The notes under the pieces are model-generated. The model ran no database searches. It was given only the letters and a program-made list of their open reading frames with translations, and was not told the DNA's origin. A stretch of DNA of 64,000 nt from Candidatus Gottesmanbacteria bacterium (lineage in GTDB: Bacteria; Patescibacteriota; Microgenomatia; JAMCYU01): NCBI GenBank assembly GCA_043801155.1, contig JAZDMI010000021.1, positions 130,683 to 194,682 on the forward strand, in the 5' to 3' direction. The position numbers and the translations under genes were made by a program. Within the stretch, counting starts at the first letter, position 1; each line of letters begins with the position of its first letter. Positions 4,519-59,323 of this stretch are shown here, in pieces.

Positions 4519-4547
4519 CCGTCATTGCGAGCGAAGCGAAGCAATCT
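4519..4547 (+). repeat. Family-1 repeat, short form, immediately upstream of the GIY-YIG gene
   Basis: CCGTCATTGCGAGCGAAGCGAAGCAATCT; essentially identical to 458-485. Confidence 0.85.
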
Positions 4548-4561
4548 CGTCAAATAGTCTA

Positions 4562-4858
4562 ATGAGAAATAGGCAATCGTTTGTTTATATAGCAACAAAC
4601 AAGTTTAATTCTGTCTTGTATACAGGTGTAACCGGTGATTTAATAAAGCGTGGCTACGAACATAAAATAGGAGTAGTTTCTGGATTTACATCAAAATACA
4701 AAATTCACAAACTGGTATATTACGAAATATTTGACGATATAAGCGAAGCGATAAAAAGAGAGAAACAAATTAAGGATGGGTCTAGAAAGAAGAAAATAGA
4801 ACTGGTTATGAAAATGAATCCGGAGTTTAGAGATTTATATGAGGATATTGTTAAATAA
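4562..4858 (+). CDS. GIY-YIG nuclease family protein (small, stand-alone)
   Basis: FVYIATNKFNSVLYTGVTGDLIKRGYEH...YYE...EAIKREKQIK; typical ~95-aa GIY-YIG/UPF0213 architecture. Confidence 0.85.
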   Translation: MRNRQSFVYIATNKFNSVLYTGVTGDLIKRGYEHKIGVVSGFTSKYKIHKLVYYEIFDDISEAIKREKQIKDGSRKKKIELVMKMNPEFRDLYEDIVK

Positions 4859-7197: not shown

Positions 7198-7542
7198 ACC
7201 GGTATGGTGGCAAGTATAGTATAATTACCGAAGAGGCGACGTTTCTTAAGTTTTAGCTACAGGGTACTTAAGTAATATGGTAGAAGATTGTGAAGTAGGA
7301 TGCTTTTTATTTCACGCTTTAGAGCGTATTGATAGCTCTTTAGCGGATTTAAATAAAGAAGCTAGAAAAGTAGCACAGGAAGGTGGGGAATTTCCTGGTT
7401 CAGCAGGATCGATGTGCGGGGCTTGTGTAACTAGGAAAAAAAATGACACCTCTCTAGAGATAAAAAAAGCGAACCTTAAGCTTTGAAACGAAAATGTAAT
7501 TTATTTGACTTGTTAATTGCAACTGATATATCATTAATTAAG

Positions 7543-8370
7543 ATGAATATTAAAAGGTTATTATTGTTAACGTTGTTTTTCTTCTCTATCAGTCTTTTTG
7601 CTCCAAAAACTTCACAAGCAGTTGATTTAAAAGAAGTGCTAACTTCAAATGATTCAATTGTAGTAAGAATACAGGAAGGGATTGAATATTTCTTTGCCTT
7701 CAAGGTTGAAAATAAGGTTAAGGTCTTGGAAAGACAAGCAGAAAAAAGATTAACTATGGCGCAGGGTTATGCTGATAAAGGAAATGATGAAAAGGTAAAT
7801 AATTTATTGCAAAACTACCTGCAAATAAAAGATAGACAGAATGATTTATTAGGGGGAATCAAGGGTGGGGAGATTTTGGGAACGGTTGAAGAAAGAACGA
7901 TCGAACAACAAAAAACAATGGAAGAGATAAAAACTAAGATTGATGAAGATGGGAAGAAAAATGTTGTTCAGGTTCAGGAGCAAGTCGTAAATCAGGTGGC
8001 AAAAAGGGTTATCGATGTAAACGGAAAGGAAGGGGCAACTGAGTTTTTAAATAATGTGGTGCATGTCTGGGCACCCGGAACAGGGCCGGGAGGAGGGGAA
8101 GCGGGAGTAGTATATGCAGGTGGTGGAAAATTAATCTTTGCACCCGGAACAGGGCCGGGAGGACAGGGTGGAGTTGTGATTGAGGGTGGAGAAATGAAGT
8201 TTGCACCAGGGACTTCCGAGGGTGGATCCGGTGGGACTGATATTAAGAATGTGGAAGTAAATACTGGGGGAGGTTCAGAGAGTGGCGGAACAACCGTAGA
8301 AGGTGGAAATCAAAATATGGCTCCGGGGACTACTTCGGGAGGGGAAGGAACAACAGTTATTAAGGAATAA
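7543..8370 (+). CDS. Secreted Gly-rich tandem-repeat protein (hypothetical)
   Basis: Signal peptide MNIKRLLLLTLFFFSISLFAPKTSQA. The C-terminal half consists of repeated APGTxxGG... units, with a ~75-bp DNA unit repeated from about 8060. Confidence 0.5.
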   Translation: MNIKRLLLLTLFFFSISLFAPKTSQAVDLKEVLTSNDSIVVRIQEGIEYFFAFKVENKVKVLERQAEKRLTMAQGYADKGNDEKVNNLLQNYLQIKDRQNDLLGGIKGGEILGTVEERTIEQQKTMEEIKTKIDEDGKKNVVQVQEQVVNQVAKRVIDVNGKEGATEFLNNVVHVWAPGTGPGGGEAGVVYAGGGKLIFAPGTGPGGQGGVVIEGGEMKFAPGTSEGGSGGTDIKNVEVNTGGGSESGGTTVEGGNQNMAPGTTSGGEGTTVIKE

Positions 8371-11792: not shown

Positions 11793-13061
11793 TTGGCGTT
11801 GACAAATTTTATGTTAGATATACAAAAAATAAAACAGGACTTTCCTATCCTAAAAAGACAGATAAATGGAAAACAAATTGTCTATCTTGATTCCGGTGCG
11901 TCTTCCTTAAAGCCTTGTCAGGTAATTGAGGCGATGGATAAATATTATATAAATTATGGAGTGAATATCTTTCGTGGTATTTATCGACTATCGCAGGAGG
12001 CAACCGAAGAATATGAAAAGGCCCGTCAAAATGTGGCTAAATTTATTGGAGCAAAAGATCCAAGAGAAATAATTTTTGTCAGAAACGCCACTGAAGCTAT
12101 CAACTTAGTGGCTTATGCTTGGGGAAGAGCAAATATTGACGTGAGGAGTGAAATTGTTTGTACGGTTATGGAACATCATGCTAACTTGGTGACCTGGCAA
12201 CAGCTGGCACTGAAAAACAGTGCCACCATAAAATTTTTGGATATTGATGAAAATGGAAAACTAAAAATCAATCGCCATCAGGAAATAAATCTCGATAGCG
12301 TGATAACAGACAACACAAAACTATTAGCAATTACTTATGTCTCTAATGTTTTAGGAACAATAAATCCGCTTAAAGAAATTGTGAGAAAAACCAAAAAGAT
12401 TAACCCTAATTGTTTGGTTTTAGTTGATGGAGCACAAGCAATACCCCATATGAAAGTTGATGTTGAAGATTTAGGTTGCGATTTTTTTGCCTTTTCCGGA
12501 CACAAAATGCTCGGACCGATGGGAATTGGTGTTCTTTGGGGTAAATATGAATTATTAGATAAAATGCTGCCGTTCCAATTTGGGGGAGAAATGATTAGGG
12601 ATGTTTATCTGGAAAAAACGACCTTTGCTGATCCGCCACATAAATTTGAAGCGGGGACCCCCAATGTAGCTGGGGCTATCGGTTTGTCTGCTGCCATTGA
12701 TTATCTAGAGGGATTTGGTATGGAGAATATAAGACAACACGAGGTTGAAATAACAGAATACGGTTTAAATCAATTGAGCAATATAAAAGATTTGAAAATT
12801 TACGGTCCAGAAAAAGTAGAAGACCGGGGCGGAATTATTGCTTTTAATATTGATGGTATTCATGCTCATGATTTAGCCCAAATATTAGACGAGGACAATG
12901 TTTGTATCAGAAGTGGCCATCACTGTGCCATGCCATTGCATACCCGTTTGGGAATTCCCGGATCTGCCCGCGCCAGTTTTTATCTCTACAATACTAAGGA
13001 AGATATTGATAAATTAGTAGAAAGTTTAAAAAAAGCTAAAAAGATATTTAAAATATTATGA
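11793..13061 (+). CDS. sufS: Cysteine desulfurase SufS (PLP-dependent, class V aminotransferase fold)
   Basis: PLP-Lys motif SGHKMLGP and active-site Cys in RSGHHCA. Confidence 0.9.
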   Translation: MALTNFMLDIQKIKQDFPILKRQINGKQIVYLDSGASSLKPCQVIEAMDKYYINYGVNIFRGIYRLSQEATEEYEKARQNVAKFIGAKDPREIIFVRNATEAINLVAYAWGRANIDVRSEIVCTVMEHHANLVTWQQLALKNSATIKFLDIDENGKLKINRHQEINLDSVITDNTKLLAITYVSNVLGTINPLKEIVRKTKKINPNCLVLVDGAQAIPHMKVDVEDLGCDFFAFSGHKMLGPMGIGVLWGKYELLDKMLPFQFGGEMIRDVYLEKTTFADPPHKFEAGTPNVAGAIGLSAAIDYLEGFGMENIRQHEVEITEYGLNQLSNIKDLKIYGPEKVEDRGGIIAFNIDGIHAHDLAQILDEDNVCIRSGHHCAMPLHTRLGIPGSARASFYLYNTKEDIDKLVESLKKAKKIFKIL

Positions 13062-13090: not shown

Positions 13091-13226
13091 GGGCTGGCGG
13101 TAACGAATTTTTTCACCCCGCTTTGTCAAAGTTAAATTGTTGTTTAGTGCATTAGCACGAAGTTTTACACTTTGGAAAGACAGAATCATAAGTGCGGGGT
13201 TGTCAAAAATTGTTACGCGCCATCCC
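13091..13226 (+). repeat. Family-2 ~138-bp element with terminal inverted repeats (MITE-like), copy 1, located between sufS and sufU
   Basis: Aligns end-to-end with 21791-21928 and 26506-26643. The conserved core is GAATTTTTTCACyCC...AGTGCAyTAGCACGAAG...GyGGAGyTGTCAAAAATT...CGCGCCATCCC. Confidence 0.8.
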
Positions 13227-13244
13227 TTATTTTGCACTTTTATC

Positions 13245-13628
13245 ATGGATATTTATCGACAAAATATTTTAGATCATTATAAAAATCCGCGCAACTTTGG
13301 CCCTATGGAAAAACCTGATTCCTCACATGAGGAAGGTAATACTTTATGTGGAGATAAAATTAAAATAGAAATAAAATATAAATTAAAACCTGATAACGAA
13401 AAAACTATTGATGATATAAAATTTACCGGTGAAGGATGTGCTATTTCTTTGGCTAGTGCCTCTATGTTAACAGAGAAAGTTAAAGGAATGACTATAGAAG
13501 ATATTAAGAAATTGAGATATGATGATATTAAAGAAATGTTAGGAACGGATTTAAGTCCAGCTAGAATAAAATGTGCAACATTGGCCCTGCAAGTTTTACT
13601 TAAAACTATTGATCATTTAATATTGTGA
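13245..13628 (+). CDS. sufU: SufU/IscU-like Fe-S scaffold (the ORF-track start at 13137 is extended into the repeat; the start proposed here is at MDIYRQ)
   Basis: Three-Cys scaffold motifs (LCGD, GEGCAIS, KCATLA). The upstream 108 nt of the tracked ORF are repeat sequence. Confidence 0.75.
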   Translation: MDIYRQNILDHYKNPRNFGPMEKPDSSHEEGNTLCGDKIKIEIKYKLKPDNEKTIDDIKFTGEGCAISLASASMLTEKVKGMTIEDIKKLRYDDIKEMLGTDLSPARIKCATLALQVLLKTIDHLIL

Positions 13629-21081: not shown

Positions 21082-21194
21082 AACTACATATTCCGCGCTT
21101 CAAAATCCCGAGCTTCCGCTAGCTGGCGGAGCGAGCGTGAATTGAAGCAAGGAAAAAGGAATATGTGGACTTATTTTACTCTATATTTTTCTTC

Positions 21195-21309: not shown

Positions 21310-21780
21310 ATGAATAACAATCAAAACGTTCTTCTAACTCGTGATGGGTTAAATGAACTTAAAAGTGAATATGACGAACTGGTGAATGTTAAGAGACCAG
21401 CCGCTGTTACACGGATGGCACAGGCACGAGATTTAGGTGATTTAGCCGAAAATAGTGAATATACAGCTGCTAGGCAAGATTTAGCTTTTATCGATGGTCG
21501 GATAGTTGAACTTGAAGAAATCTTACATGAAGCTAAGATTATTTCAAAGTCAAACTGCCCAAAAGGCAAAGTTGATCTTGGTTGTAAGGTTACTCTTCAT
21601 ATAGATGGTAAAAAAGAAGTATTTACCATTGTTGGAGAGTGGGAAGCCGATCCTAGCAATAAGAAAATTTCTCATGCTTCGCCCCTAGGACAAGCTCTTT
21701 TAGGTAAGAAAGTAGGAGAAAAAGTAGAAGTTGAAGCCCCGGTTGGGAAAATTATCTATACGATTGTTGAGATAGAGTAG
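21310..21780 (+). CDS. greA: Transcription elongation factor GreA
   Basis: GreA N-terminal coiled-coil (LTRDGLNELKSEYDEL) and a C-terminal FKBP-like domain. Confidence 0.9.
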   Translation: MNNNQNVLLTRDGLNELKSEYDELVNVKRPAAVTRMAQARDLGDLAENSEYTAARQDLAFIDGRIVELEEILHEAKIISKSNCPKGKVDLGCKVTLHIDGKKEVFTIVGEWEADPSNKKISHASPLGQALLGKKVGEKVEVEAPVGKIIYTIVEIE

Positions 21781-21790
21781 TTTTTATAGA

Positions 21791-21928
21791 GGCTGTTGGC
21801 TACGAATTTTTTCACTCCACACTGTCTTCGAGTAGGTTATTGTTTTGGTGCACTAGCACGAAGACCATTCGATTATAATGTAATTGCCAAAAATGTGGAG
21901 CTGTCAAAAATTATAGCACAACATCCTC
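21791..21928 (+). repeat. Family-2 ~138-bp TIR element, copy 2 (intergenic, greA-lysK)
   Basis: Aligns with copies 1 and 3. Confidence 0.8.
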
Positions 21929-24440: not shown

Positions 24441-25051
24441 AACGTCTTCTTATTGCCACCACAAATCCTGGTAAACTCACAGAAATCAAATTTTTTCTGA
24501 AGGAAATACCCATAAAACTAGTCAGTCTTACCGATTTAGGAATAAAAGATAAGGTTGAGGAAGATGGAAAGACTTTCGAAGAAAATGCTAGAAAGAAAGC
24601 AATTTATTATTGTAAGATTTCCGGAATACCAACTATTGCCGACGACGGGGGATTAGAAATCGATTATTTAAACGGTGAACCGGGAGTAAAATCTCACCGA
24701 TGGATTGATAATAAAGTAAATTCAGACGAGGAGTTAATAAAATATACTTTGGAAAAATTAAAAGGATTACCGTTTGATAAACGGGGGGCACAACTGCGTA
24801 CTGTTATCGCGTTAACCATTCCCAATGGGTCTACCTTTATCAGTGAAAGTATTATTAGAGGTGTAATTTCTGAAAAAGCAGCATCATTTCGAACCCCGGG
24901 TTTTCCTTATCGTTCTCTACTTTACTTGCCCGAGTCAGGAAAATTTTATCACCAGGACGATTTAACAGAAGAAGAAAATATAAAATATAACCACCGAGGT
25001 AAAGCCCTTAGGAAATTAAAAAGAATTATTAAAGAAAAAGTGTTAAAATAA
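24437..25051 (+). CDS. rdgB: Non-canonical purine NTP pyrophosphatase (RdgB/Ham1, ITPase)
   Basis: ATTNPGKLTE and DDGGLEIDYLNGEPGVKSHRW motifs. Confidence 0.8.
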   Translation: MKRLLIATTNPGKLTEIKFFLKEIPIKLVSLTDLGIKDKVEEDGKTFEENARKKAIYYCKISGIPTIADDGGLEIDYLNGEPGVKSHRWIDNKVNSDEELIKYTLEKLKGLPFDKRGAQLRTVIALTIPNGSTFISESIIRGVISEKAASFRTPGFPYRSLLYLPESGKFYHQDDLTEEENIKYNHRGKALRKLKRIIKEKVLK

Positions 25052-25126
25052 GTCCAGGTATTCCTTTTTTCTTGCCTCATTCAAGCCTGATTGTGAATCA
25101 GGCGTTCTGAGGGGCGAAATAAAAAA

Positions 25127-26362
25127 ATGTTAGATATTAATTTAATTAGAGAAAATCCGGAAAAAATAAAAAAAGGAATTGCTGACAAAGGTTATTCTGT
25201 TGATTTAGTGGATGATCTTTTAATACTTGATAAAAAACATCGAGAACTCATTGGCGAAATTGAGGAATTGCGGGCAAAAAGAAATCAGGTAGCCAAAGAA
25301 AAAAATATCGAAGAAGGTAAAAAAATAAAATCAGAACTTCGCAAGAGAGAACCCGAGCTAGAAAAATCAGAAAAAGAACTTTTAGACAAGTTACAGATAA
25401 TTCCTAATCCTCCGGCTGATGGCGTTCCTTTTGGAAAAGGTGAAGCGGAGAATGTTGAAATAAAAAAATGGGGGACTCCAAGAAAATTTGACTTTACCCC
25501 AAAAGACCATTTGGAATTAGGAACATCTCTTGGTATTTTGGATTTTGATTCGGGAGCCAAAGTATCCGGGGCGAATTTTTATTTTTGGCTTAAAGCAGGT
25601 GCGCTTTTGGAATTAGCACTTATTCGTTATGCTTTCGATGTTTTATCTAAAGAAGGATTTACACCAATTATTACTCCTGACCTGGTTCACTCGCGTTATT
25701 ATCTGGGAACTGGTTATATGCCAAAAGGTAACGAAGCTCAGACATATACAATTGAAGGTGAAGATCTGGGATTAATTGCTACTGCCGAAGTAACATTAGC
25801 CGGGAGACATGCAGATGAAATAATTCCGGAAGAAAAATTACCGATAAAATATATTGGTTATTCTCATTGTTTCCGCAAAGAGGCAGGATCGTATGGAAAG
25901 TATGCTAAAGGTTTGTATCGAGTTCATCAATTTACAAAAGCAGAGATGTTTATATATTGTTTACCGGAAGAATCAGAAAAATATCATCAACATATTTTGG
26001 CCATGGAAGAAAAGATTTATCAAGGGCTTGGGTTACCCTACCGAGTTTTACAAATGTGTACCGGTGATTTGGGAGCAATGGCAGCTAAGAAATATGATAT
26101 TGAAGCTTGGATGCCCTGTCGAGGTGAATATGGTGAAGTTACATCAACCTCAAATTGCACTGATTACCAAGCAAGAAATTTAAACATAAAATTTAAAAGA
26201 AAAAATGGTCAGATGGAATTTATTCACATGTTGAACGGAACAGCGATTGCCACATCAAGAACCCCCCTAGCAATTTTAGAAAATTATCAGCAAAAAGACG
26301 GTAGTGTTTTAATTCCTGAGGTGCTTCGTGAATATATCGGATTTGAAAAAATTTCTCCCTAA
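25127..26362 (+). CDS. serS: Seryl-tRNA synthetase
   Basis: SerRS N-terminal coiled-coil (MLDINLIRENPE) and class II catalytic core motifs. Confidence 0.9.
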   Translation: MLDINLIRENPEKIKKGIADKGYSVDLVDDLLILDKKHRELIGEIEELRAKRNQVAKEKNIEEGKKIKSELRKREPELEKSEKELLDKLQIIPNPPADGVPFGKGEAENVEIKKWGTPRKFDFTPKDHLELGTSLGILDFDSGAKVSGANFYFWLKAGALLELALIRYAFDVLSKEGFTPIITPDLVHSRYYLGTGYMPKGNEAQTYTIEGEDLGLIATAEVTLAGRHADEIIPEEKLPIKYIGYSHCFRKEAGSYGKYAKGLYRVHQFTKAEMFIYCLPEESEKYHQHILAMEEKIYQGLGLPYRVLQMCTGDLGAMAAKKYDIEAWMPCRGEYGEVTSTSNCTDYQARNLNIKFKRKNGQMEFIHMLNGTAIATSRTPLAILENYQQKDGSVLIPEVLREYIGFEKISP

Positions 26363-27104
26363 AACTCTTATTAAGATAAATTCTCCGATTAATGGCGAAA
26401 TTTCTGTTATTGAACAATTCGGGAAAAGAAAAATTATGGTTGGTGGTTTAACACAATCTGGTCCTATGGCAGAAAAAATCTGGGAAGACGCTATAAAAGA
26501 AATATGGGCTGGCGGTGATGAATTTTTTCACTCCACGTTGTCAGGTTGTGAACCAGAGACTAGTGCACTAGCACGAAGACAATCTTTACCCAGAGACATT
26601 GCCATAAGGAGTGGAGCTGTCAAAAATTATCACGCGCCATCCCAAGGAAATAAAATACTACTTTTGGGAGTTGGGGGAGGATCTTTAGTTAAATTACTTA
26701 ATAAATATTTCCCAGATGCAAAAGTTATTGGTGTAGAAATAGATTCACTAATGATTAATTTAGGAAAAAAATATTTGGAATTAGAAAAGGCAAAAAATTT
26801 TGAAATTATTATTGACGATGCAGAAAACTATGTGCAGTCCTCTATAAACTATAAGCAAAATTTCGATTTAATTTTTGTTGATATGTACAAAGGAGATAAA
26901 GTTCCAGAGAATTTGGAAAATATAAATTTTTTACAAAATTTAAAAAATATTTTATCAATAAATGGCCTAGTTATTTTTAATCGTCTGTACTATAAAAATC
27001 ACATTTTTGAAGCAAATATTTTTCTTGACAAATTGAAGAAAATATTTAATGATTTAAGATGTAAAAAGATTTACACAAATATTTTCTTATATTGTAAAAA
27101 ATAA
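26328..27104 (+). CDS. Spermidine-synthase-like class I SAM-dependent methyltransferase carrying a 46-codon in-frame repeat insertion
   Basis: Rossmann motif I LLLGVGGGS...VIGVEID. A family-2 repeat lies in-frame between the N-terminal domain and the MTase fold. Confidence 0.55.
   Translation: MNISDLKKFLPKTLIKINSPINGEISVIEQFGKRKIMVGGLTQSGPMAEKIWEDAIKEIWAGGDEFFHSTLSGCEPETSALARRQSLPRDIAIRSGAVKNYHAPSQGNKILLLGVGGGSLVKLLNKYFPDAKVIGVEIDSLMINLGKKYLELEKAKNFEIIIDDAENYVQSSINYKQNFDLIFVDMYKGDKVPENLENINFLQNLKNILSINGLVIFNRLYYKNHIFEANIFLDKLKKIFNDLRCKKIYTNIFLYCKK
26506..26643 (+). repeat. Family-2 ~138-bp TIR element, copy 3, inserted in-frame inside a CDS
   Basis: Aligns with copies 1 and 2. Translated stop-free as ...AGGDEFFHSTLSGCEPETSALARRQSLPRDIAIRSGAVKNYHAPSQ. 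Confidence 0.8.
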
Positions 27105-43311: not shown

Positions 43312-43602
43312 ATGAAACTATTTATCGATACCGGAGATAATACGAAAACCATTGTTGGTTTAGATAATATTAGGTTAGAAAAGCCGACTGGACCGGATAA
43401 GTCACAGCAAGTCTTGGTTTTGATTGACCAATTACTTAAGGAAAACCATAAGCAGATTAAAGATATTACTGATATAGTAGTAAATATTGGTCCCGGTTCC
43501 TTTACCGGGCTTAGGGTCGGAATAACCGTGGCTAATACTTTAGCCTGGGTATTGAAAGTTTCGGTTAACGGAAAAGTAGCGGTTGAACCTCACTATGATT
43601 AA
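43312..43602 (+). CDS. tsaB: TsaB-like protein, N-terminal-domain-only (96 aa)
   Basis: YeaZ-like N-terminal motif GPGSFTGLRVG; lacks the C-terminal half. Confidence 0.5.
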   Translation: MKLFIDTGDNTKTIVGLDNIRLEKPTGPDKSQQVLVLIDQLLKENHKQIKDITDIVVNIGPGSFTGLRVGITVANTLAWVLKVSVNGKVAVEPHYD

Positions 43603-58790: not shown

Positions 58791-59323
58791 AAATTATCAA
58801 TAATATTAATAAAAATATCCTGATTTTTCCTGCTTTAGTATTGGCGATTATCCTAGTTTTGTTAATCGTAACCGGAAATTTTCTTTATCAGAAAGCATTA
58901 ACAATTAAAGACAGCCAACAAAAATTATCTATTCTTAAGCAGGACTTATTCTATTTAGATAAAATTATCAGCGATAAAAATGCCAGTCAGTACCAAATAA
59001 ATGAGATGGTAAAATCTTTACCCGCCAGTTACAACGACGTCGTTACCTTCGTATCGCAAATCGAAAGAATCGCCACTCAAAGCAGTCAAAAGATTGAAAT
59101 TAATATTGCCGAAAAGGCAATCCCGGAAACAGGAAATCTGGCCAGTATTAAATTGTCCATCAAAACAATTGGTTCATATAATGGATTTACCAAGATGATA
59201 TCTAATTTTTCCAGTTTACCATTCCATACCAAAGTTGATTCGATCTTAATTGAACAAAATAAAGAAGAACTTTCTGCTTTAACCGAGTTAAGACTATTTA
59301 AGAGGGAAGAGGAGATAAAATGA
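58784..59323 (+). CDS. PilO-like bitopic membrane protein
   Basis: N-terminal TM segment plus coiled-coil; operon position. Confidence 0.35.
   Translation: MVKIINNINKNILIFPALVLAIILVLLIVTGNFLYQKALTIKDSQQKLSILKQDLFYLDKIISDKNASQYQINEMVKSLPASYNDVVTFVSQIERIATQSSQKIEINIAEKAIPETGNLASIKLSIKTIGSYNGFTKMISNFSSLPFHTKVDSILIEQNKEELSALTELRLFKREEEIK

Follow-up and report, generated by a model that had tools for sequence, protein, structure and literature searches.

The Rickettsia palindromic elements (RPEs; RPE-1 and related families of Ogata et al. 2000, after the summaries in PMC2229807 and PMC10969869) are stem-loops of 105–146 bp that occur between genes and also fused in-frame to conserved genes. They are tolerated there by the host protein and lack an established target-site duplication (PMC2229807, PMC10969869). 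The ERIC/IRU (RU-1) and Correia/NEMIS MITEs, of 100–160 bp, form stem-loops in transcripts, are found mostly in the spacers of transcription units with some fusions to ORFs, and the RNA hairpins of ERIC and Correia can affect the stability of neighbouring mRNA (PMC2229807). REP/BIME sequences, which are mobilised by RAYT, are shorter units of 20–40 bp marked by GTAG or CGTC tags (PMC3733652). Our literature search found no description of MITE- or RPE-like elements in CPR bacteria/Patescibacteria. Here, we describe palindromic repeats of Candidatus Gottesmanbacteria that probably represent a new family of small non-autonomous elements of the RPE kind, tolerated in protein loops; this placement is suggested by a match in anatomy and behaviour with the RPEs as they have been described.

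The analysed stretch of DNA, here called the window, spans 64,000 nucleotides with a G+C content of 36%, and 62 of its 66 likely genes (~94%) lie on the + strand. Its source is confirmed by the methyltransferase carrying copy 3, which is 100% identical to an NCBI protein of a Candidatus Gottesmanbacteria MAG (CPR/Microgenomates) encoded on a 272,544-bp contig. An initial annotation had described three copies of a repeat that align end to end, and their positions and common + strand were confirmed, except that copy 2 starts one nucleotide earlier than stated, at 21790 instead of 21791 (Table 1). The unit measures 136–139 nt in the window copies, and the blocks GAATTTTTTCACYCCRC, GTGCAYTAGCACGAAG, and GYGGRGYTGTCAAAAATT have exactly three matches each in the window, against a chance expectation of 0.3–1.3 even with three mismatches allowed. 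A weak further model match at window positions 58821–58927 is ordinary coding sequence.

Table 1. Copies of the palindromic repeat in the window, parts of copy 2, and the host gene of copy 3
Feature	Position	Strand	Setting or sequence	Remarks
Copy 1	13091-13226	+	spacer between sufS (11793-13061) and a sufU-NifU-like gene (ATG 13245), within the suf operon	model R1 156 bits; neighbours by Pfam
Copy 2 (flagged)	21790-21928	+	greA-lysS spacer	model R1 153 bits
Copy 2, 5' arm	21789-21820	+	5' half of the 28-pair outer helix	holds conserved block ACGAATTTTTTCAC
Copy 2, central block	21848-21863	+	GTGCACTAGCACGAAG	invariant in 3/3 window copies
Copy 2, 3' arm	21895-21928	+	GTGGAGCTGTCAAAAATTATAGCACAACATCC	partner of the 5' arm
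Copy 3	26506-26643	+	within the spermidine-synthase-like methyltransferase gene	138 nt, 46 codons, stop-free, in-frame
Host gene of copy 3	26328-27104	+	methyltransferase, PF01564 (Spermine_synth) family	

The three copies differ in their gene surroundings. Copy 2 begins 9 nt downstream of the greA stop codon (21778–21780) and ends 71 nt upstream of lysS (22000), which encodes a class I enzyme according to Pfam, and the methyltransferase gene that hosts copy 3 is positioned after serS. The start codon of sufU lies 18 nt past copy 1; no Shine-Dalgarno-like sequence is visible in 13227–13247, greA has AAAGGAG upstream, and the hairpin of copy 1 might affect sufU translation. Copy 2 and lysS are also bracketed by a 36-nt inverted repeat (21143–21178 / 25044–25079, 89% complementary) whose arms are separated by 3.9 kb: the first lies upstream of greA, the second at the end of a Ham1-like gene. 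Elsewhere in the window, an exact 29-nt direct repeat (CGTCATTGCGAGCGAAGCGAAGCAATCTC) occurs at 458–486, in ORF 52–936 between the C-terminal part of tRNA-synt_2 and the YbaK/tRNA_edit domain, and at 4520–4548, just upstream of a small GIY-YIG ORF (4562–4855). A near-tandem 29-nt repeat (TCTGGGCACCCGGAACAGGGCCGGGAGGA; 8066–8094 and 8135–8163) in the DUF5667 ORF (7483–8370) is probably a coding Gly/Pro-rich repeat. The TsaD-family ORF at 43312–43599 encodes only 96 aa, matching positions 30–84 of the 264-position Pfam model, and its counterpart in the syntenic region L103 is likewise 96 residues long.

A single long hairpin is predicted for each window copy, with folding energies between −45.5 and −49.5 kcal/mol and z-scores between −3.6 and −4.5; none of 200 shuffled sequences reached such an energy, which is the same on both strands. 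The hairpin is built from an imperfect outer helix of 28 bp, comprising an A/T helix (AAUUUUU/AAAAAUU) and an inner G+C stem, which encloses a poorly conserved interior. Paired base changes between the arms had been reported for copies 1 and 3 (TAAC/GTTA to TGAT/ATCA and CCCGC/GCGGG to TCCAC/GTGGA) and are real: RNAalifold on the three window copies finds both sides changed with the pair kept in 12 of 37 predicted pairs. In a five-copy model alignment, 96% of the cells are paired, and 10 of the 28 outer-helix pairs have changed on both sides and none on one side only; no shuffle out of 500 did as well, and slid partners were 38–52% paired. The MAFFT alignment of all seven full copies, which leaves out the truncated copy L122 6002–6110, gives an outer helix that is 93.4% paired (0/500 shuffles as good; slid partners 37–53%), with both sides changed in 11 of 28 pairs, one side changed in three, and one pair represented by four different standard pair types.

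These results bear out the proposal of the initial annotation that the repeat is a folded element kept complementary, either a MITE-type hairpin or a structured RNA. It had named a lack of covariation in further copies, or a purely local duplication, as grounds for abandoning that proposal, but the four added full copies keep the covariation, and copies exist in other genomes. A central mini-hairpin (GTGCAYTAGCAC), which it considered conserved, can be seen in each window copy but is not retained by the relatives: in the seven-copy alignment, no pair of this second helix has changed on both sides, some pairs are broken, and across the wider family only AGCACG.AG is retained at the centre. Nor does the repeat match a known RNA family, none having been recognised by the initial annotation either: Rfam at the gathering score identifies only two tRNAs in the window, and the best hit at permissive thresholds, on copy 1, has E = 2.4. 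An intrinsic terminator was rejected for copies 1 and 2, where scans detect no terminator-like site (3' flanks CATCCCTTATT and CATCCTCAATAG).

The helix also has irregularities whose positions are fixed. All seven copies contain a C.U mismatch (columns 6 and 140) and a one-base bulge of variable base identity, and the six well-preserved copies additionally share a U-rich internal loop and, beside the A/T helix, a G17.U128 wobble (or bulged G), which is an A-U pair in the diverged copy. In these six copies, 59 of 146 alignment columns are invariant, and the interior is near random. Apart from the invariant G.U, the sporadic non-Watson-Crick cells comprise six A.C and two G.U; the folded molecule may be either RNA or single-stranded DNA. 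Stem variants do not segregate by locus but are common to different loci of different genomes; GGCCGCCGGCC, for instance, is shared by L120 and L115.

Five further copies were found in three other genomes or contigs (L115, L116, and GCA_040960625.1), bringing the known total to eight. In GCA_040960625.1, one copy (L120 3492–3633, 107 bits) occupies the same greA-lysS spacer as copy 2, a diverged copy lies at L122 16479–16618 (model R1 scores it at 30 bits; model R2, which was built including that copy, at 91 bits), and another at L122 6002–6110 is truncated and has lost its 3' outer arm. The other two lie in copA genes and are treated below. Copy density is thus three in the 64-kb window (two in spacers, one genic) and three in ~43 kb of GCA_040960625.1. 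At the place of the missing arm in the truncated L122 copy stands the ATG (6091) of the next methyltransferase gene, and the canonical GTCAAAAATTGTTA here reads GTCAAAAATGGTTA, so this truncated element may have supplied or reshaped the start of the downstream gene.

Syntenic regions of relatives, obtained via the methyltransferase and CopA homologues, also include sites that lack the element. Full-model scans of L103, L104, L117, L121, L123, and L124 found no copy; the greA-lysS spacer of L103 instead contains an intrinsic-terminator-like hairpin followed by a T run, that of L121 is only 63 nt long, and the methyltransferase P0007 of L120 has no insert. Exact-pattern scans, which used motifs of the window copies and speak little to the true distribution of the family, gave no match to the central plus 3' blocks in genome contigs or to the 5' plus central blocks in metagenome contigs. 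The both-arm pattern matched 11 loci in JGI metagenome contigs, of which only L115 is real, and none in viral contigs. The central 16-mer alone has 90 genome and 12 viral matches, which were dismissed as chance since none has the flanking blocks, and blastn against plasmids and phages returned no match.

All eight known copies, at about six independent loci, are in sense orientation relative to the host or downstream gene. Such uniformity suggests a strand-specific process, but the orientation is confounded with strand or replication direction because ~94% of the window genes lie on the + strand. The six well-preserved copies are 58–76% identical to each other, those in the window 63–69% among themselves, and the diverged L122 copy is 46–57% identical to the others; these low identities give no sign of a recent burst or recent movement. 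Between the window genome and GCA_040960625.1, the GreA, LysS, and SerS proteins are 74–79% identical, and third codon positions are only 44–47% identical, indicating that synonymous sites are saturated. Nevertheless, the two greA-lysS copies each have 25–27 of 28 pairs intact with five compensated double changes between them, and the two copA copies differ by four compensated double changes. Within the element, third codon positions of copA are 65% identical, compared to 40% in the rest of the gene.

A hairpin with fixed irregularities that is kept at one locus over saturated divergence should not be expected of a dead selfish relic. Three processes could account for its retention: locus-by-locus selection for a function of the RNA or single-stranded DNA; conversion by active copies that refreshes the others, which the stem variants shared across loci would fit; and templated self-correction of quasi-palindromes, with which the conserved mismatches fit poorly. 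If the copies were neutral relics, their arms would have stayed complementary without selection, through such template-switch correction during replication or through gene conversion between copies. The scarcity of one-sided intermediates (none of the pairs in the five-copy set, three in the seven-copy set) is compatible with this, as is the sharing of stem variants between the loci and genomes of L120 and L115, which fits copying between copies. Yet correction should erase imperfections, whereas the C.U mismatch, the bulge, and the U-rich loop persist at fixed positions, and it gives no account of the conservation of unpaired blocks such as AGCACG.AG. We therefore regard neutral persistence as improbable.

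Alternatively, the element could be a cis-acting structured RNA of the host, such as a hairpin for the processing or stability of mRNA, a site for RNase III, or one that binds a protein, that spread long ago and has since been kept at each locus. The compensated double changes (four to five per shared position) that preserve the helix where third positions are saturated at 40–47% are in line with this, as are the raised third-position identity within the copA element, the consistent sense orientation of 8/8 copies, the location of copy 1 inside the suf operon so close to sufU, the G.U pair of the six well-preserved copies (A-U in the diverged one), and their block of invariant columns around a near-random interior. 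On the other hand, a 28-bp helix within two essential-looking ORFs is ill-suited to a processing site, and close relatives lack the element in the corresponding spacer or gene, which indicates that it is dispensable. The excess of sporadic A.C over G.U cells runs contrary to the prediction for a sense-strand RNA helix, the orientation is confounded as described above, and there is no Rfam match. Taken together, a host RNA element of this kind seems unlikely to us, though it is the main rival of the RPE-like reading. A related, tentative possibility is that the repeat is no decaying selfish element and that Gottesmanbacteria actively maintain it as a structured nucleic-acid module, always in sense orientation, even within translated ORFs, with compensatory evolution in place in the greA-lysS spacer and the copA loop. 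If true, this would point to a new trans-acting factor of CPR bacteria that reads RNA or single-stranded DNA.

The initial annotation did not mention that copy 3 lies in-frame within a gene, and it is this position that places the family nearest to the RPEs. The methyltransferase ORF runs continuously through the copy (...KEIW-AGGDEFFHSTLSGCEPETSALARRQSLPRDIAIRSGAVKNYHAPSQ-GNKILLLGVGGG...), which encodes the peptide AGGDEFFHSTLSGCEPETSALARRQSLPRDIAIRSGAVKNYHAPS. At this position, where the N-terminal beta domain is joined to the first Rossmann strand, 13 of 16 aligned methyltransferase homologues have no more than a short linker; that of P0034 is longer and unrelated, and P0002 and P0012 contain a different palindromic insert. 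AlphaFold2 models the protein with a mean pLDDT of 82.8 and mostly above 90 in the flanking fold, compared to below 50 for insert residues 63–106, and the insert is thus predicted to be disordered and to occupy a surface loop that the host fold can accommodate. An exhaustive HMMER search with the 50-aa insert against 1.84 billion representative proteins found no true relative, its two matches being unrelated G+C-rich tandem-repeat proteins. A word-indexed search with the same peptide returned no match and also missed P0001, which contains it.

The insertion also has consequences for annotation. Methyltransferase homologues align from a GTG at 26328, overlapping the end of serS, but the NCBI protein P0001 (222 aa) starts at an internal ATG at 26436. 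The deposited gene call therefore appears to be N-terminally truncated even though it includes the insert, so that the element alters gene calls: the NCBI methyltransferase starts late and yet has 46 extra residues.

The different palindromic insert in the same methyltransferase linker is found in-frame at L103 10236–10330 and L104 ~575–750. It encodes RRAEVGTKI...NFVPPRAS, its core (GGCACGAAAATTTT / CAAAATTTTGT) is similar to that of the ~140-nt family, and its outer stem covaries between the two loci (GCGC/GCGC vs. CTGC/GCAG). Neither model R1 nor R2 has a significant match at these inserts, which were thus rejected as members of the family described here. The Gottesmanbacteria lineage may thus harbour more than one family of coding palindromes, perhaps several, and the similar ACG-A/T-helix core suggests a wider superfamily.

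The remaining two copies share a site in CopA-type P-type ATPase genes. In L115 (1347–1486, minus strand; 83 bits with model R1), the copy lies in-frame and sense just past the DKTGT motif and is read in the same frame as copy 3 (AAGHEFFHSTLS...EAVKNYGPAS). The copy in L116 (1928–2066; 97 bits) occupies the same site in the homologue P0126; its 3' half reads ...MSKIVARHP because of an internal frameshift, but the frame is restored within the element, and the whole insert is in frame. The segment from DKTGT to SEHP consequently measures 83–95 aa in the two carriers, compared to 35–63 aa (mostly 36–41 aa) in 38 of 39 other homologues. The exception, P0127 of L117, has an 82-aa segment with an unrelated insert; it was considered as a decayed copy and rejected, as it forms no hairpin, its DNA similarity is equalled by at least 62 of 500 shuffles, and only a faint peptide echo is detectable (GH..F.P, E = 0.02). 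P0126 is closest to P0128 and P0129 (72–73% identity), both without the element, and only 65% identical to the other carrier, P0123. Loss, a renewed insertion at this site, or conversion is thus part of the CopA history.

Other CopA proteins also vary at this position. Low-complexity inserts are found in the same loop of P0144, P0149, and P0152 (PNPKYQIPNKYKILNTKYQIL; TEFLISNFKFLNKSQLSNSQ), and P0125 and P0127 have unrelated inserts of 26 and 45 aa, respectively. Judged from these sequences, the post-DKTGT loop of CopA is an insertion hotspot of variable length.

The methyltransferase and copA genes read the element in one common frame, as A(G/A)G.EFFH. This frame contains no stop codon in any of the three genic copies, but one, one, two, and three stops, respectively, in the four full intergenic copies, a clean split that by our own count would arise by chance about once in 35 cases. 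Since stops are absent only from the genic copies, selection appears to act against them where the element is translated. This speaks against the idea that the repeat is an intervening sequence, removed by intron-like excision or skipped by programmed ribosomal bypass and hence missing from the proteins. The presence of a strong hairpin within ORFs would suit such a mechanism, and CPR bacteria are known for unusual insertions in their rRNA genes. However, neither excision nor bypass would need genic copies to be in frame and stop-free where intergenic ones are not, or the frameshift of the L116 copy to be restored within the element. As the repeat also matches no ribozyme or intron family and, with its 138 nt, falls short of the length of group I and group II introns, we consider an intervening sequence very improbable.

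Conversely, the element could have been selected at the protein level as a peptide module, with the palindrome incidental. The ends of the encoded peptide, EFFHSTLS and AVKNY, are indeed conserved in the methyltransferase and one CopA. However, of the seven full copies, four lie between genes and have stops in that frame, the 3' half of the L116 copy is read in a different frame, and third codon positions are conserved. Moreover, the insert is predicted to be disordered and found no true relative in the HMMER search of representative proteins. This is the explanation to which we give the least credence.

We thus favour, on balance, a family of small mobile palindromes of the RPE kind. We infer mobility, and with it a mobilising enzyme, because copies are dispersed over unrelated sites, orthologous sites are empty in relatives, and truncated and degenerate copies exist. 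According to this proposal, copies would have dispersed into A+T-rich operon spacers and into genes, where an insertion would survive only if the unit is a multiple of three, its frame is free of stops, and it lands in a surface loop. A genic copy would then be translated as a disordered extra loop of ~46 residues. The folded hairpin would be read either by the former mobilising machinery or by a host factor acting on the transcript, and it is this reading that may cause the arms to change together.

Several observations weigh against this scenario. No target-site duplication is visible: inspection of five junction pairs, a check that the initial annotation had recommended, revealed no consistent direct repeat, as judged at approximate boundaries, no near-identical empty site having been found to fix them. 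In the window, Pfam detects neither a transposase nor a Y1/HUH or DDE gene, the small GIY-YIG ORF being the only nuclease-like gene, and there is no transposase among the genes called in the related loci (a scope of ~64 kb of the source genome and ~150 kb of relatives). In addition, nothing in the 63–69% identity within the genome points to recent movement, 25–27 of 28 pairs are intact at shared positions although third codon positions have fallen to 40–47%, and only eight copies are known. The uniform sense orientation would not be predicted for DDE transposition.

Compared to known systems, the repeat differs from classical MITEs, a category that was rejected on the available evidence, in its lack of a visible target-site duplication, of high copy identity and, within the window and the related loci covered, of a partner IS or transposase with which it could share inverted repeats. 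Integron attC sites are imperfect palindromes of 57–141 nt whose folded single-strand structure, including fixed extrahelical bases, is better conserved than their sequence, and all of which share one orientation. The repeat resembles them in being an imperfect palindrome that preserves structure over sequence, with fixed extrahelical bases and a single orientation. It was nonetheless rejected as an attC site, as the RYYYAAC ... GTTRRRY core is loosely present only in copy 1 (TAAC ... GTTAC), Pfam detects no integrase gene or cassette array in the window, and copies lie inside ORFs. The corresponding positions of the other copies (TGAT/ATCA, CTAC/ATAG, and CCAT/ATGG) covary freely. Retron and intron identities were also turned down. 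ERIC and Correia elements have a TA target-site duplication, TA termini and, in Correia, an IHF site, none of which is seen here, and they occur in either orientation and at a much higher and more uniform copy number. With REP/BIME sequences, whose structure is read by a Y1 transposase (PMC3733652), the repeat shares hairpin formation and an orientation bias, but it was not assigned to the REP/RAYT system, as its unit is ~140 nt long, its ends lack a GTAG or CGTC tag, and no RAYT gene was found.

The RPEs differ in their host, an alphaproteobacterium instead of CPR Gottesmanbacteria, and our likening by description concerns a family with only eight known copies. Common descent with the Rickettsia RPE families is unlikely, given the different host phylum. 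As far as the documentation we have seen goes, two further features set the present repeat apart from RPEs, namely pairing kept at shared loci over saturated divergence and a uniform sense orientation. Otherwise, the correspondence extends to most of the anatomy: both are units of ~105–150 bp that form a stem-loop from end to end, and both are dispersed over spacers and in-frame positions in housekeeping genes as old, diverged copies that encode a family-specific peptide, with no known transposase and no clear target-site duplication. The in-frame, stop-free use of one family frame is common to the methyltransferase and both CopA copies, and the sites are surface loops as predicted from the AlphaFold2 model and the variable length of the CopA loop. 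Translated palindromic repeats in conserved enzymes are best documented in Rickettsia, and the CPR family would add an unrelated case. This suggests that the writing of new protein loops by selfish DNA recurs in small, reduced genomes.
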